64,000 nucleotides of DNA, from positions 3,023 through 67,022 of the forward strand of contig CAWHNS010000015.1 in the NCBI GenBank assembly GCA_963830715.1, read 5' to 3'. Shown in pieces: positions 10,840-16,054 of this stretch. The position numbers and the translations under genes were made by a program. This stretch comes from an uncultured delta proteobacterium (lineage in GTDB: Bacteria > Desulfobacterota > Binatia > Binatales > Binataceae). How positions within the stretch are numbered: the first letter of the stretch is position 1; each line of letters opens with the position of its first letter. Below the pieces are notes generated by a model, which had not been told where the DNA came from, searched no databases, and was given only the letters and a program-made list of their open reading frames with translations.

Positions 10840-10925
10840 GATTTACAGTCAACGTGGTTTGGGCCCCATCGGTCAAGCATTGTGATACGCTGCGATCCAA
10901 TCGCCAACGGCAAGGTAACGCAGAC

Positions 10926-11735
10926 ATGGCGGAACAATCTAAATCACAATCGCAGCGCGCGACGGACCGCGAGATCGATGCGGCCGCCGAGATTATTCTG
11001 AGGGCCGAATACCCGATCGCATTGACCGGCGCCGGAATGTCGGTCGAGAGCGGCATCCCGCCGTTTCGCGGGCCGGGCGGCTTGTGGACCAAGTACGGCG
11101 AGCCACCGATGAACGGCTTCCAGATCTTCATGTCGGACCCCAGGAAGGCGTGGGAGCAGCGGCTTAGCCGCCGCAACGACGAACTCTTCGCGCCGCTCCA
11201 GGTGGCCAAGCCGAATCCGGGGCACATCGCGCTTGCGGAACTCGAGGCGCTTGGCCTGCTGCGCTTCGTGATCACGCAGAATATTGACGATCTGCATCGG
11301 CAGGCCGGTCAGAAGGCGCTGGCGGAGATCCACGGCAACTGGAAGCTCGTCCGATGCCTCGAATGCGTCTCGCGCTTTCGCCCCGACGAGGTGGCGCTCG
11401 ACGTTCTGCCGCCGAAGTGTGCGCGATGCGGCGGGCTGCTCAAGAGCGATACGGTTTCGTTTGGCGAGCCGATCCCGGCCGACGTGCTCCAGCTTTGCGC
11501 GGCGCACGCGTCGCGCGCCGACCTGGTGATCGTCGCCGGCACTTCGGCGACGGTCTATCCGGCCGCCGGGTTCGCCATTGAAGTGAAGGAGCGAGGCGGC
11601 GTGATGGTCGAGGTCAATCTATACGAATCGGAGCTAACGCAGCTTTGCGACATCAGCCTGCGCGGCGGCGCGGCTGAAGTCCTGCCGCGACTCACCCACG
11701 CGATTGGCCATCGCCGGCGCGCATCGGCAAATTGA
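10926..11735 (+). CDS. cobB: NAD-dependent protein deacylase (sirtuin, CobB-like)
   Basis: TGAGMSVESGIPPFRG, TQNIDDLH, EIHG, two CxxC, GTS. Confidence 0.9.
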   Translation: MAEQSKSQSQRATDREIDAAAEIILRAEYPIALTGAGMSVESGIPPFRGPGGLWTKYGEPPMNGFQIFMSDPRKAWEQRLSRRNDELFAPLQVAKPNPGHIALAELEALGLLRFVITQNIDDLHRQAGQKALAEIHGNWKLVRCLECVSRFRPDEVALDVLPPKCARCGGLLKSDTVSFGEPIPADVLQLCAAHASRADLVIVAGTSATVYPAAGFAIEVKERGGVMVEVNLYESELTQLCDISLRGGAAEVLPRLTHAIGHRRRASAN

Positions 11736-11756
11736 AGGCAGAAGACGGGTGGTGTC

Positions 11757-12635
11757 TCAGTTTGGATTTTCCGCCTTCTCCCGCGCTTCCCATTCGTCCA
11801 CGATCCCGACCACATCTTCAAGCGAGTAGAGCCGGTCTGCGACCCCGGCTTCCATCGCGGAAGTGCATCGCAATGTCTTGTGAATCCGCACGAAGTTATA
11901 CCAGACCGCGTAGAGCGCAACCATGTGACAGTGGTTCTCGAATTTCTTTGAGAACGCATTGGTCAGCCGGGTAAATCGGCGCATGTGCATCCGCATGGTG
12001 AGATTCGAGCGTTTGACGTAGCTGGTCGAGATGTGCGCGGGATCGGGATTGCCGCGAACCACTTCATGCTTCGCCCCAAAGCAGATCGCCGGACTATAGC
12101 GCGTCTCCGGGCCGCTTGGGGCCACGCCGTACAGCTTGACCAGCATCGCGTAGTCGATCGGGTCTTTGAGAAAGCCGACGCCGAACGCTTCCGCAACCGC
12201 GTACAGATAGGCTCTGTGGCCATCCGTGGTTAGCTGGACGCGATTCGCCAGTCTCGCCGCCGCATCGTTCATGAACACGCGGGCCGCTTGCGCGTCGCGT
12301 GCGCCGATGAACCACGAGATGATCAACTTGCTGTCCGCATCAAGCGCGGTCCAGGTCCATGTATCGCCCACATTTTCGGGCCGATCTGCTTTCGCCTTGG
12401 CCTGCTTTTCCTTCATCCCGCAGAACGACCAGATTTCATCGCACTGGATGTGCTTCGATTTCACGTCGCGAACGGTGCGGTCGTGGAAATCCGCGCACGC
12501 TTGACCGGCAAGCACTAGCTCGCGCGTCACGGTATTGATCGAAACATCGACCAGCCGCGAGACGGAGCGCATCGAAGACCCCTCGCAGAGCAGAGAGAGA
12601 ATCTGGACGCGCTTGGCGATGGGCAATCTGTTCAT
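11757..12635 (-). CDS. IS1-family DDE transposase (single ORF)
   Basis: N-terminal HTH (LLCEGSSMRSVSRL), QCDEIWSF, LTTDG, RRFTRLTNAFSKK; stop lies inside the terminal repeat. Confidence 0.88.
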   Translation of the reverse strand: MNRLPIAKRVQILSLLCEGSSMRSVSRLVDVSINTVTRELVLAGQACADFHDRTVRDVKSKHIQCDEIWSFCGMKEKQAKAKADRPENVGDTWTWTALDADSKLIISWFIGARDAQAARVFMNDAAARLANRVQLTTDGHRAYLYAVAEAFGVGFLKDPIDYAMLVKLYGVAPSGPETRYSPAICFGAKHEVVRGNPDPAHISTSYVKRSNLTMRMHMRRFTRLTNAFSKKFENHCHMVALYAVWYNFVRIHKTLRCTSAMEAGVADRLYSLEDVVGIVDEWEAREKAENPN

Positions 12636-12639
12636 GCCC

Positions 12640-12673
12640 ACATAATATGAAATTCTTGCTTGAGTGTCAAGCA
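12640..12673 (-). promoter_or_regulatory. Putative transposase promoter with palindrome TGCTTGA-GTG-TCAAGCA over the -35
   Basis: Minus strand TTGACA...TATTAT just upstream of the ATG; 7-bp inverted repeat 12657-12663/12667-12673. Confidence 0.55.
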
Positions 12674-12696
12674 TAATATTCAGGTCAAATAGAGCC

Positions 12697-12730
12697 AAAA
12701 AGAAAGGCCCCGTTCTCGGGGCCTCTTTCT
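12697..12730. terminator. Intrinsic terminator ending the passenger operon
   Basis: AGGCCCCG/CGGGGCCT hairpin flanked by an A-run (U-tract on minus strand) and TCTTTCT. Confidence 0.7.
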
Positions 12731-12755
12731 CATACCACGGGCGCTGGACGCGATT

Positions 12756-13011
12756 TTACTTTTTCGGGTTCACCTTGGCCGCATCGAGAGCTATTTCACT
12801 TTCCTTATCAGCCTTTTGCAGACCGACACTGAGGATCGGAATGATGGCCGCAGGAACGATACCGGTGCCGGGGGGCGGGGGTGCTACATTCGCACCGGCC
12901 AAGGCAAGTTGAAATGCCAGACTCCAGATTCCTTCGTGCAGTTCTTGCTTTCGGATCATGAGCTCGAACGAGTTCTTTGTGCGAAAAAACGTATTGCGTA
13001 GCCTCTGCCAT
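12756..13011 (-). CDS. Small hypothetical protein (about 84 aa), third gene of the hicAB operon, one-base frameshift near 12967
   Basis: Joining two ORFs gives MAEATQYVFSHKELVELMIRKQELHEGIWSLAFQL...VNPKK; AAGGAG RBS overlaps the hicB stop. Confidence 0.7.
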
Positions 13012-13024
13012 ATCGCAGAACTCC

Positions 13025-13762
13025 TTACTTCTTGGTTTGAGTTCGCCCGAGATCGGCGGGTCCTGGTAACGTAGTTAACAGATACCCCATGCCGCCCATC
13101 GGTGAAATGTTTGTTAGATCGGTGACGCCGCTCATCGGTGACTGGTTAGCCAATACCAAATTGGTCGGGTCAAACGCGGTAGCTCCAATTTCGATTCCGG
13201 TTCCACTTATCGAACCGGTTATCGAACCGGTTAGGTCGTAGATTGAGCTGTGTAGAGTGTAAGGCATGAATGGCGAAGCGGCTGAAACTACTCTGACGCT
13301 GTAAAAGTTCTGAATCACGTTCATTTCGATCCTGTGGGCAATTCGGTCAAAGAGATTGTCCGCACCCACCCAAGCGGCGATAGCCGTCACAAGAACTTGA
13401 TTCATGCTGACGCCGTCACGTTGAGCCTTGTATGCGGCTAGTCGATGTAGATCACGTGGAAGCCTCAACGCAATCTTTCCCGAATATGGATGATTCGCCG
13501 AAGGCGGGGGAATGTCCTGCCCTTGCTCAAGACAACTCTCAATCCATGACTCTGCGACGCTCTCCAAATTGCGGTATGCCTCATCCGGCGTTTCCCCTTC
13601 AGCTAGACATCCGGGAAACTCCAAAATCTCGGCAAAAAAACCCCCGTCAGGTTCTGGAATCAAAATTCTGGCATACGGAAGACGTAGATAGGACTTGGCG
13701 TCATTCGTTGCCGGAACCGCTACTGGAGTTGCCCGAACTGCGATTTCACCGCTCTGTTTCAT
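13025..13762 (-). CDS. hicB: HicB-family antitoxin with RHH domain and long C-terminal extension
   Basis: FFAEILEFPGCLAEGETPDEAYRNL (HicB), SGKIALRLPRDLHR...GVSMNQ (RHH), then about 100 aa S/T/G/hydrophobic tail. Confidence 0.85.
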   Translation of the reverse strand: MKQSGEIAVRATPVAVPATNDAKSYLRLPYARILIPEPDGGFFAEILEFPGCLAEGETPDEAYRNLESVAESWIESCLEQGQDIPPPSANHPYSGKIALRLPRDLHRLAAYKAQRDGVSMNQVLVTAIAAWVGADNLFDRIAHRIEMNVIQNFYSVRVVSAASPFMPYTLHSSIYDLTGSITGSISGTGIEIGATAFDPTNLVLANQSPMSGVTDLTNISPMGGMGYLLTTLPGPADLGRTQTKK

Positions 13763-14027
13763 TCGATAGTTCTTCCTCAATTGCCCATAGGTCGCCTTCA
13801 AGCTGGGTCAGGACCGCATCTTTTGTACGATTCTTCATTGGTCGAGAATGATGCGGAATGGACAGTGATCGGCGGCCAGGCATCTCAAATATCGGATGTT
13901 TGCCGCCTTTACGCGGGGTGCGCCCGATTGCCCTTGCAAGACGTTCCAATTCACGACTCGGAACCTGCCCTTGCCCTTGAAGTTCCTCAATCGACCGCCG
14001 CAACTCCGCTATCTTCTTGGGCGTCAT
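13746..14027 (-). CDS. hicA: HicA-family toxin
   Basis: Basic 93-aa protein with GKHP...LSIPHH, overlapping the hicB start. Confidence 0.75.
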   Translation of the reverse strand: MTPKKIAELRRSIEELQGQGQVPSRELERLARAIGRTPRKGGKHPIFEMPGRRSLSIPHHSRPMKNRTKDAVLTQLEGDLWAIEEELSNETER

Positions 14028-14071
14028 GATATCATATTCAATATCATGACCACGGTCGGCGCTTTTGTCAA
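14023..14071 (-). promoter_or_regulatory. sigma70-type promoter and palindromic operator of hicAB
   Basis: TTGACA-17 nt-CATGAT; perfect 10-bp inverted repeat GTCATGATAT (14023-14032)/ATATCATGAC (14041-14050) covering the -10 and start codon. Confidence 0.75.
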
Positions 14072-14084
14072 GGAAAAGAGGGGA

Positions 14085-14324
14085 CTATCGTTTCCCAGCT
14101 TTTGCCCATCGAGCTTTTGCAGCCTTGCTGGCGATCTGTGCCCGACGTTTTTTGCTGAGCTTCGAGGCCCGCGCCCGCCCGCCCTTCAGCCCGCCCTTCC
14201 GCGCATATTCCTTCCCCGGCTCAAGCGGATTGTCCTGAATCCCGCCGGTCGCGATCCGCATGACGTGAACGGCGTTGCCGATCACGTCGGCGGGTCGGCG
14301 CTCGCCTCGCGGTCCCTTTGGCAT
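14085..14324 (-). CDS. Small basic KGG-motif protein next to the element end
   Basis: MPKGPRGERRPADVIGNAVHVMRIATG...KGGLKGGRARA...AAKARW, 79 aa. Confidence 0.75.
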   Translation of the reverse strand: MPKGPRGERRPADVIGNAVHVMRIATGGIQDNPLEPGKEYARKGGLKGGRARASKLSKKRRAQIASKAAKARWAKAGKR

Positions 14325-14410
14325 ACTGACAAGATGACATGGCGGGAGCGGTTCGCCAAGCGCCGAGATTTTCAAACTGAGACACTACCCGAAGACGCCT
14401 TCGGAAAGTC

Positions 14411-15191
14411 CTACAGCGGATGGCCCGGCATCCCGCTCTGCGCCGTTGCGCCGCCGTCCGCGACCACGATACTGCCGGTCATGAACGACGAATCGTCGCC
14501 GGCCAGGAAGAGTACGACTTTCGCGATCTCCTCGGGCTTGCCGAGCCGGCCCATCGGATGGCATTCCGCCGCGGCGCGCCGCGCGGCCTCCGGATCGCGC
14601 GCCGCGCTCAGCGCGTTGATCACCGGCGGCGTCATCACGCCGCCCGGACATACCGCGTTGACCCGGATATTCTTGCGCGCGTATTCGATCGCCGCCGTCC
14701 GCGTGAGGTTTATTACTCCCCCCTTGGCGGCGTTGTAGGCGCCGAGCATGTAGTCGCCGAACAGTCCTGAGATCGACGCGGTATTGACGATCGCGCCGCC
14801 GCCCTGCGCGACCATCTGCGGCAGTGCGAAACGCATCCCGTAGAACACGCCCGAGAGCGTCACCGAGATCGTCCTGAGCCAGCCGTCGATTTTCGATCTG
14901 ACCGACCGGCCCGTAGGTCGAGTAGAAGGCGTTGTTGTGCAGCACGTCGAGCCGGCCGAACCGATCGACCGCAAATTTGACCATCGCTTCGACCTGGCGC
15001 GGATCGCGCACGTCGGTCTTCAGGTAAGCTGCCGCCGCCCCGATCTCGCGCGCGACCCCGATGCCACCCGCGTCGTCGATATCCGCGACAATGACCTTGG
15101 CGCCCTCGGCCGCGAACAGCCGCGCGGTCGCGGCGCCGATTCCCGACGCGGCCCCCGTAATCACCGCGATTTTGCCGTCGAGTTTGCCCAT
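14411..15191 (-). CDS. SDR family oxidoreductase, frameshift near 14890
   Basis: TGAASGIG, NNA, YNAAK, RVNAVCPG. Confidence 0.9.
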
Positions 15192-15275
15192 CTAAGTACC
15201 TGCCTTTGCGGTTTCCGGAAAGCCGGAATCGCGATAGGTTGAATGCTACGTCTAGATGAAAGGACTCCCGGACCA

Positions 15276-16054
15276 ATGCTCAAGCTGTACGAACATCCGT
15301 TCTCCCCTTACGCACAGAAAGTCAAGATCGCGCTTTACGAGAAGAACATCCCATTCGAGCCCGAAGTGCCCCAGGCCTTCACCGGATCAGGCACCGACTA
15401 CGGCAAGACCAATCCGCGCCTCGAGGTGCCGGCTTTGGTGGATGATGGATTTCCGATCTTCGACTCGACGATCATCGCGCAGTACCTCGAAGACAAGTGG
15501 CCGCAGCCTCCGATGCTGCCCGAGTCGGCGCGCGACCGCGCCCGCGTCCGGATGATCGAAGATTTATGCGACACCTGTTACGAGCCGATCAATTGGGGCC
15601 TGATGGAGATCACGGCGTGGGGACGCGCGACCGGCGACCTGGCGGATCGGATCGTCGCGCGCGCCCGCCAGCAGACCGATGGCATATTCGCGTGGCTCAA
15701 TCGAGAGCTGGGTTCGCGGCCGTATTTCAACGGCGCCTCGTTCGGCTACGGCGACTTGTGCGTATATCCGTTCGTGCGCGGATCGATCACCTTCCGCAAC
15801 AGCCCCCGCCCGGCTCGGCGCTCGCCGCATGGGTCGCGCGGGTCGATCAGCGCGAGAGCGTGCGCAAGACCATCGACGCCGCGCGCCAGTTCGCAGGCAG
15901 CATGGATACGCTCAAGGAGCTGCTGAAGACGGGCGTCTTCAAGCGCCAGTATCGCGACCATCGCCTCGAATGGATGATGCGCGTCGGCGGCAGCGACATC
16001 GTACGCGACGGCCTCGCCAACAGCACGATCCGCTTCTCCCAGGAGATTTCGTAA
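15276..16054 (+). CDS. Glutathione S-transferase family protein, frameshift near 15805
   Basis: SPYAQKV, NPRLEVPAL, FDSTIIAQYLED. Confidence 0.88.

Follow-up and report, generated by a model that had tools for sequence, protein, structure and literature searches.

What does the third gene of a hicAB operon do, and why should the antitoxin of that operon carry a long tail that its two-gene relatives lack? The question is raised by a 64,000-nucleotide stretch of DNA from an uncultured delta proteobacterium of the Binataceae (assembly GCA_963830715.1, contig CAWHNS010000015.1, positions 3,023 to 67,022 of the forward strand; hereafter the window), in which hicA, an overlapping hicB and a closely coupled small gene (hereafter gene 3) are read together from the minus strand. 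In this study, we examined the three genes, the mobile element that carries them and the neighborhoods of gene 3 homologues elsewhere, and found that the product of gene 3 belongs to an unnamed protein family whose surveyed members are mostly encoded next to tailed antitoxins of several types. We give a probability of roughly 0.5 to the reading that gene 3 plays the part of the SecB-like chaperone in toxin-antitoxin-chaperone (TAC) systems, i.e. that its product holds the tail of HicB so that HicB can neutralise HicA.

The three genes share one promoter/operator region and end at one terminator. The promoter-like site (14071..14043, minus strand; TTGACA, 17 nt, CATGAT) has 10 of 12 matches, which by itself is not above chance (two such sites found in the region vs 1.3 expected), and it is made credible by its position and by the operator that is interlaced with it. 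This operator-like element is a perfect inverted repeat, GTCATGATAT / ATATCATGAC, with 10-nt arms at 14023-14032 and 14041-14050 and an 8-nt gap, one arm lying over the -10 hexamer and the other over the start codon of hicA; a 10-bp palindrome, ATGATATCAT, can be read within it at 14026-14035. Behind it follow hicA (14027..13746, minus strand, 93 aa, a divergent HicA-like toxin by the evidence given below) and hicB, the ATG of which (13762) lies 17 nt upstream of the hicA end, resulting in a 17-nt overlap, and which runs to 13025 on the same strand and encodes a 245-aa antitoxin. The ribosome-binding site of gene 3, a Shine-Dalgarno sequence AAGGAG at 13026..13021 (minus strand), overlaps the TAA of hicB (13027..13025) and precedes the ATG of gene 3 (13011..12756, minus strand, with a 1-nt insertion at about 12966) by 9 nt, and gene 3 is probably translationally coupled to hicB. 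The intrinsic terminator lies at 12726..12703 (minus strand), with a 10-pair stem that includes 7 G-C pairs, followed by a T run. The initial annotation had described one promoter with a palindromic operator, overlapping hicAB genes, a gene 3 ribosome-binding site on the hicB stop and a closing terminator, and every one of these could be placed at the coordinates given here.

The hicA product scores 21.3 bits (E 2.9e-4) with Pfam HicA_toxin (PF07927), below the cut-off of 27, and homologues from related operons reach 18.6-23.6 bits with the same model. A profile of seven HicA homologues matched PDB chain 1whz_A at E 0.0016 and the HicA entries 4c26 and 6g26 at E ~0.5, and the length and operon position of the protein fit HicA; because of the sub-cut-off Pfam score combined with the PDB profile matches, we take the product to be a probable divergent HicA. 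HicB matches three Pfam models above their cut-offs (PF05534, 40.9 bits; PF21748, 36.8; PF15919, 31.1), and the matches to HicB, UPF0150 and HicB_lk_antitox all fall inside residues 32-132. The protein appears to be built from a normal toxin-binding N-domain and a ribbon-helix-helix (RHH) DNA-binding domain, followed by a tail of ~113 residues (133-245, encoded by 13366..13028, minus strand) that is without any family match. A long, nearly uncharged tail with a TGSI repeat had been noted earlier, and the tail is indeed 113 aa long, with only 5 charged residues among the 86 of residues 150-235 (44 S/T/G/N/Q/P, 36 hydrophobic), and contains TGSI-TGSI, encoded by an exact 12-nt tandem duplication (13207-13233); it is predicted to be disordered. 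When 36 close HicB relatives were aligned, a short segment after the RHH domain was kept (GADNLFERIAHRIEMNF...) and the rest was hypervariable in both length and sequence. The tail is absent from close two-gene HicB relatives, and 14 of 29 sampled relatives have a tail of no more than 12 aa.

The genes beside gene 3 homologues were surveyed at 53 other loci (L numbers below; proteins carry P numbers), of which 13 are from species-representative genomes of several phyla and 40 are metagenome loci retrieved with an 8-row gene 3 alignment. At the 13 genome loci the upstream open reading frame (ORF) encodes a tailed HicB in five cases and a tailed XRE-type helix-turn-helix (HTH) protein of 160-177 aa in four, and the remaining four comprise a 78-aa remnant (L010), a gene 3 truncated by an insertion sequence (IS) (L012) and two loci without recognisable neighbour (L016, L017). 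From the 40 metagenome loci 38 upstream ORFs were scanned, giving 8 HicB, 22 HTH_3 and 8 without match; the upstream ORF of L031 is also HTH_3, which brings the count to 31 of the 40 (8 HicB, 23 HTH_3), and L046 is at a contig edge. Among the unmatched ORFs, four near-identical loci (L059-L062) carry, upstream of gene 3, a HigB_toxin (E 2.7e-24) and then a HigA-like protein of 184 aa, two (L045, L027) are of HTH type by eye, L040 is a remnant and L051 has no recognisable antitoxin. A Pfam-supported antitoxin is found directly upstream of gene 3 in 40 of the 53 loci, or in 44 when the HigB/HigA type is counted. Co-occurrence of gene 3 homologues with tailed antitoxins had been named beforehand as the point to check, and these 44 loci uphold it: gene 3 is linked to tailed antitoxins of three types (HicB, XRE-HTH and HigA-like). 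The antitoxin tails at gene 3 loci are 45-110 aa long, rich in polar uncharged residues and not mutually alignable, and the distance from antitoxin stop to gene 3 start is mostly -21 to +34 nt.

The HTH-type operons begin with a gene for a conserved protein of 150-177 aa with the motif CFxFKW...RLYGF (L039:1481-1972, L063:1559-2029 and six others), which has no Pfam or PDB match and is presumably a toxin of an unassigned family. A resemblance of this protein to Gp49/HigB-like toxins was considered and dropped.

What follows tailed and untailed HicBs was then compared within the window's phylum, where the HicB core (residues 1-135) matched 66 of 401 sampled genomes and the best 29 HicB loci outside the window's genome were analysed. 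Gene 3 lay directly downstream of 6 of the 15 tailed HicBs (≥36 aa) and of 0 of the 14 untailed ones (≤12 aa), counts that describe a pattern and do not amount to a statistical test, the genomes being related rather than independent and the groups being defined by tail length. The six gene 3-bearing loci are the closest relatives (51-75% identity), with tails of 58-92 aa. The other nine tailed HicBs (36-91 aa) are followed by a SecB-like protein in two cases (L073 at 35.6 bits, above the cut-off; L084 at only 14.4 bits), by DUF6941 in three (L085, L091, L093) and by uncharacterised 141-252-aa proteins in another three (L075, L083, L086), with no downstream ORF found in the last. A gene 3 profile search of the same phylum sample hit 10 of the 401 genomes; of the three loci that it adds, one is an HTH-type operon, one a further HicAB-type operon and one a remnant. 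Judged from these sequences, the place of SecB in TAC systems may be taken by several unrelated families.

The modular character of gene 3 is apparent from its phylogeny as well as from natural fusions. In a maximum-likelihood tree of 45 distinct gene 3 proteins (52 sequences minus 7 duplicates; products <60 aa left out), HicB- and HTH-linked members interleave, with 10 changes of the HicB label, at least three of which are forced by well-supported branches; the labels are nevertheless more clustered than shuffled ones (13 changes vs a mean of 17.8). P0153 (229 aa) joins a HicB RHH domain, a tail and gene 3 in one chain, P0254 (123 aa) is a fusion of an HTH fragment and gene 3, and the C-terminal part of P0230 (637 aa) consists of two gene 3 domains in tandem. 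AlphaFold models the gene 3 domain of P0153 with a predicted local distance difference test score (pLDDT) of 97-98, and because tail residues 68-116 are below 50 and have no secondary structure, the tail behaves in this model as a disordered region.

The gene 3 family is widespread, with about 1,000 sequence clusters in Acidobacteriota, Verrucomicrobiota, Pseudomonadota, Thermodesulfobacteriota and others: an 8-sequence profile retrieved 986 proteins at E ≤ 0.001 (404 at E ≤ 1e-10) from 1.84 billion cluster representatives, mostly 82-125 aa in length. Pfam matched nothing in the gene 3 part of 10 homologues, NCBIfam and PADLOC gave no match to gene 3, its neighbours in the ESM Atlas are unnamed clusters only, and among eight clusters looked up four bear a name, which is always 'hypothetical protein'. 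The family-wide consensus includes HEGxW and VDAAxVNP, with W29 and D75 near-invariant and G27 and P52 invariant. An AlphaFold2 model built from 147 sequences (pLDDT 95.0; predicted template modelling score 0.74) has one helix and then five strands, and gene 3 is thus modelled as encoding a small alpha+beta protein. Compared with 48,161 PDB representative chains the model gave a best Z of 2.1, with no SecB among the matches, a missing match not being proof of a different fold; Foldseek returned nothing at E ≤ 0.001 from the PDB or from BFVD (viral), and a sequence-profile search of the PDB gave no match either. With a DUF6941 protein the hhalign probability is 0.19% and there is no match to Pfam PF22091, and gene 3 appears to be unrelated to that family.

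How, then, might gene 3 act? Functional analogy with TAC systems is the simplest reading, because SecB takes the same slot behind other tailed HicBs in the phylum. The operon also matches the pattern that defines TACs, since the tail is absent in two-gene relatives, the third gene is coupled, and the antitoxins concerned are of three unrelated types. A TAC-like architecture without SecB had been suggested by the initial annotation, and it is what the comparison returned, with a tailed antitoxin, a coupled non-SecB third gene and the same gene 3 family behind all three antitoxin types. Under the mechanism that we propose, the gene 3 protein would bind the destabilising tail of HicB and shield it from aggregation or proteolysis, neutralisation of HicA by HicB would require gene 3 protein that is free to hold on to the tail, and loss or titration of the gene 3 protein (e.g. 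by a phage protein or through loss of the element) would release HicA. Inferred in this scheme are the contact with the tail, the stabilising effect on HicB and the nature of the trigger.

The copy in the window has an irregularity in gene 3 itself. The frame that opens at ATG 13011 makes sense for 15 residues, after which it turns into nonsense rich in arginine and cysteine, and the +1 frame continues to the stop at 12756. In seven homologues of 84-88 aa, residues 1-15 align with the first frame and residue 16 onward with the second, and a DNA alignment with the related locus L026 reveals one extra base at about 12966 (GTTCGAG vs GTG-GAG), without which gene 3 encodes 84 aa. An indel near 12967 and a corrected length of 84 aa had been predicted beforehand, and both alignments agree with this. 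GC content at third codon positions gives no guidance on frames, and the element has a weak codon bias. Programmed +1 frameshifting was considered and rejected, as all seven close homologues are in one frame and the site is without known slippery context. Two chromosomal genes beside the element, both within 3 kb, are frameshifted too: a short-chain dehydrogenase/reductase (SDR) gene (14385-15191, minus strand) is split, with adh_short_C2 positions 1-92 and 87-236 in two frames and an A4 run at about 14890, and a glutathione S-transferase (GST) gene (15243-16054, plus strand) is broken at a C5 run at about 15803-15810. The location of these frameshifts at short homopolymers suggests indel errors in the assembly, and because both neighbouring genes are affected, an assembly error is at least as likely an origin of the extra base in gene 3 as is a pseudogene.

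The three-gene operon is cargo of a 2,644-bp IS1-family element, in agreement with the earlier proposal of an IS1 carrier: inverted repeats and a direct repeat flank the operon, and an IS1-type transposase is encoded inside. The left terminal inverted repeat (11747..11764, plus strand) is the 18-nt GGGTGGTGTCTCAGTTTG, and the right one (14373..14390, minus strand) has one mismatch; these are the only two matches in the 64-kb window, they are in inverted orientation, and none would be expected by chance. The hexamer GAAGAC, a putative target-site duplication, stands at 11741..11746 and again at 14391-14396. The transposase is of the DDE type and is encoded by a single ORF (11757..12635, minus strand; 292 aa from ATG 12635) with a promoter-like site at 12670..12642 (minus strand; TTGACA, 17 nt, TATTAT; 11 of 12 matches). 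It matches Pfam DDE_Tnp_IS1 (PF03400) at 28.1 bits against a cut-off of 24.1, and since its NCBIfam transpos_IS1 score of 57 bits (E 2.5e-15) is below the cut-off of 100, it is a distant member of the IS1 family. The remaining cargo is a small basic ORF without family match (14085..14375, minus strand), just inside the right inverted repeat, relatives of which lie upstream of the toxin gene in L026 (fragmented), L047 and L013. The genome has seven matches to the transposase and a single copy each of hicB and gene 3.

Homology with L026, which has lost the transposase, begins exactly at the right inverted repeat, and ends resembling inverted repeats occur in the expected places at other IS1-linked gene 3 loci. 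The same IS1 scaffold (inverted repeat, small basic ORF, cassette, transposase, inverted repeat) holds HicAB and gene 3 in the window (11747-14390) and an HTH-type toxin/antitoxin/gene 3 cassette in L013 (2208-4264) and L047 (232-2704), and the cassettes appear to be exchangeable cargo of the scaffold. On the other side of the left direct repeat, a Sir2-family deacetylase gene (10854-11735, plus strand), which matches Pfam SIR2 at E 8.8e-42, ends 6 nt short of the repeat, and the short spacer that separates this gene from the SDR gene is where the element inserted.

Several points weigh against a TAC-like role for gene 3. Its product would have to contact the tail, and the AlphaFold model of P0153 has the tail unstructured and not packed on the gene 3 domain. 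The gene 3 protein, at 84 aa, is about half the size of SecB, and since its model has no detectable fold relative, it would have no precedent as a holdase. Conservation of the first ~30 tail residues (those beginning with the conserved segment) within this HicB subfamily may reflect a separate function of that part of the tail. No recognisable antitoxin stands beside the homologues at L016, L017 and L051, or alongside P0230 with its two tandem gene 3 copies, and the phylum counts, as stated, come from related genomes. Finally, the window combines a frameshifted gene 3 with an apparently intact hicA, and such a copy ought to be toxic if neutralisation depended on gene 3; an assembly error, which is plausible given the frameshifts in the neighbouring SDR and GST genes, would remove this objection.

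Which other explanations could account for the third gene? It sits in the operon slot that SecB has in TAC systems, and might for that reason be taken for a truncated or highly diverged SecB, a reading that we consider extremely improbable: Pfam SecB (PF02556) matches neither the window protein nor 10 homologues, hhalign against the SecB-like neighbour of a tailed HicB gives a probability of 0.27%, SecB chains are absent from the fold matches, and 82-125 aa is the typical full length across the 986 clusters, so that the protein is not a fragment. That the third protein is not recognisably SecB, as first noted from its reading frame, is the outcome of the Pfam and profile comparisons. It seems unlikely, if well worth considering, that gene 3 has some other role altogether, as a co-repressor, as a second antitoxin acting on HicA or on folded HicB, or as a phage or stress sensor, with the tail serving as a linker or as a protease-recognised degron. 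The polar and special residues kept across the family (HEGxW, VDAAxVNP; W29, D75, G27, P52) resemble a specific site more than a generic hydrophobic groove, and the P0153 fusion is modelled without docking of the tail; yet the three unrelated antitoxin types share neither a folded domain nor a toxin and have only the long variable tail in common, and gene 3 was found behind none of the 14 untailed HicBs sampled. Sensing and chaperoning are moreover not exclusive, given that SecB-type TAC chaperones are also phage sensors according to the available text of a preprint (bioRxiv 10.1101/2024.02.24.581848).

Two further explanations concern the copy in the window and the benefit that it confers. 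The copy may be defective, with a real insertion at about 12966 that leaves gene 3 a pseudogene or a source of a 67-aa N-truncated product (from ATG 12959), the operon being decaying cargo of an old insertion. We lean against this and still count it a serious possibility: the extra base is present in the assembly at a place with no long homopolymer (TT), an L-to-M change provides an in-frame ATG 7 nt after the shift, and the related L026, with its transposase gone and its small basic ORF fragmented, indicates that such elements do decay. Against decay stand the frameshifts at the A4 run of the SDR gene and the C5 run of the GST gene, which point to indel errors in the assembly, together with the intact state of hicA, hicB, promoter, operator, terminator and both inverted repeats. 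We regard it as improbable that the three genes mainly serve the IS, as an addiction or maintenance module or as a regulator of transposition, rather than host defence. Such a role would suit an operon enclosed, as this one is, by the inverted repeats of a 2,644-bp element that is flanked by a 6-bp direct repeat, and an IS1-like transposase also follows gene 3 in 6 of the 53 other loci, with cassettes of HicB type (among them L006, L058 and L029) or HTH type (L013, L047); toxin-antitoxin (TA) pairs are in addition known cargo of Tn3-family transposons, as reported in the text available of PMC7157771. The other 47 loci have no IS1-like transposase beside gene 3 in the DNA examined, and the link of gene 3 to IS is frequent, not general. 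Service to the IS is in any case a statement about benefit and not about mechanism, and it is compatible with a TAC-like guardian function of gene 3.

If that guardian function of gene 3 is real, its implications reach beyond this operon. In the literature available to us, TAC systems have been found and defined through the SecB-like chaperone, and the large two-gene TA surveys, as far as their available text describes, set longer conserved neighborhoods aside; if a small unrelated protein serves HicB, XRE and HigA antitoxins in the same way, the known TAC repertoire is a fraction of the total, a tail plus a guardian becomes a general way of making an antitoxin conditional, and a new, confidently modelled fold gains a testable function. 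It is conceivable, although we would put it at somewhat less than an even chance, that gene 3 founds a second, SecB-unrelated and structurally new class of TA 'chaperones' or phage sensors, being one of several families (SecB, DUF6941, gene 3 and further uncharacterised ones) that independently guard tailed antitoxins. Chaperone addiction would then be a general, repeatedly evolved design in which SecB is merely one protein filling the role. Phage sensing in such defence systems falls to the TAC chaperone, so that new triggers could come with a new guardian family, and the IS1-family carrier offers a simple route for spread between phyla.

The published record gives some indication of how such operons could go unnoticed. 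According to the available portions of the Mets et al. preprint, the NetFlax survey took only conserved two-gene architectures and TACs were then sought via SecB homologues, a combination that would explain how operons with another third gene could be passed over. The main text of Gerdes 2024 (PMC10865869) does not contain the terms 'SecB', 'chaperone', 'third gene', 'three-gene' or 'C-terminal extension', and 'tripartite' occurs in it once, in the reference list only. In the accessible parts of the open-access full-text literature, excluding supplements (which might list such operons), we found no description of a non-SecB third component of a TAC or of the gene 3 family, and no open-access full text was found that mentions DUF6941. 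In the available text of PMC5105189, SecB-like chaperones go with HigA, MqsA and, less often, HicB antitoxins, the C-terminal extensions of which vary in length and composition. The antitoxin tails at gene 3 loci, which vary widely in length and sequence and are modelled as disordered in P0153, resemble the chaperone-addiction (ChAD) elements of TACs. According to the same text and that available of bioRxiv 10.1101/2024.02.24.581848, ChAD elements extend the antitoxin C-terminally by up to 96 aa and are variable and disordered, that of E. coli HigA being a 96-residue disordered region according to the latter, which also reports that SecB-type TAC chaperones serve as phage sensors.

Against this background the operon can be compared with its known counterparts. 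Like a canonical two-gene hicAB, it has hicA upstream of an overlapping hicB, an antitoxin with an N-domain and an RHH domain, and a palindromic operator at the promoter, and it differs in the C-terminal tail of ~113 aa, the coupled third gene and a HicA that is below the Pfam cut-off. Like the TA cargo of Tn3-family transposons, it is a TA module inside the inverted repeats of a transposable element, whereas it rides on a small IS1-family element whose transposase is encoded by a single ORF, and this element carries a small basic ORF in addition to the three genes. The operons in which a tailed HicB is followed by DUF6941 or an uncharacterised protein (L085, L091, L093, L075, L083, L086) share its architecture and the slot of its third gene, and their third proteins are unrelated to gene 3. 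With TAC systems (e.g. M. tuberculosis HigBA1-SecB(TA), E. coli HigBAC and CmdTAC, and those linked to HicAB or MqsRA) it has in common the order toxin, antitoxin, third gene, an antitoxin prolonged at its C-terminus by a variable, disordered stretch that is missing from two-gene relatives, the combination of one third-gene family with several unrelated TA pairs, and a location on mobile elements. The third protein, unlike that of TACs, has no sequence relation to SecB, is only about half as large and lacks a detectable fold relative, and TACs are defined by a SecB-like chaperone in the available text of published descriptions, which gene 3 is not. Because its third protein is not SecB-like, the system is best described as one that would work like a TAC without being a TAC member in the current sense.

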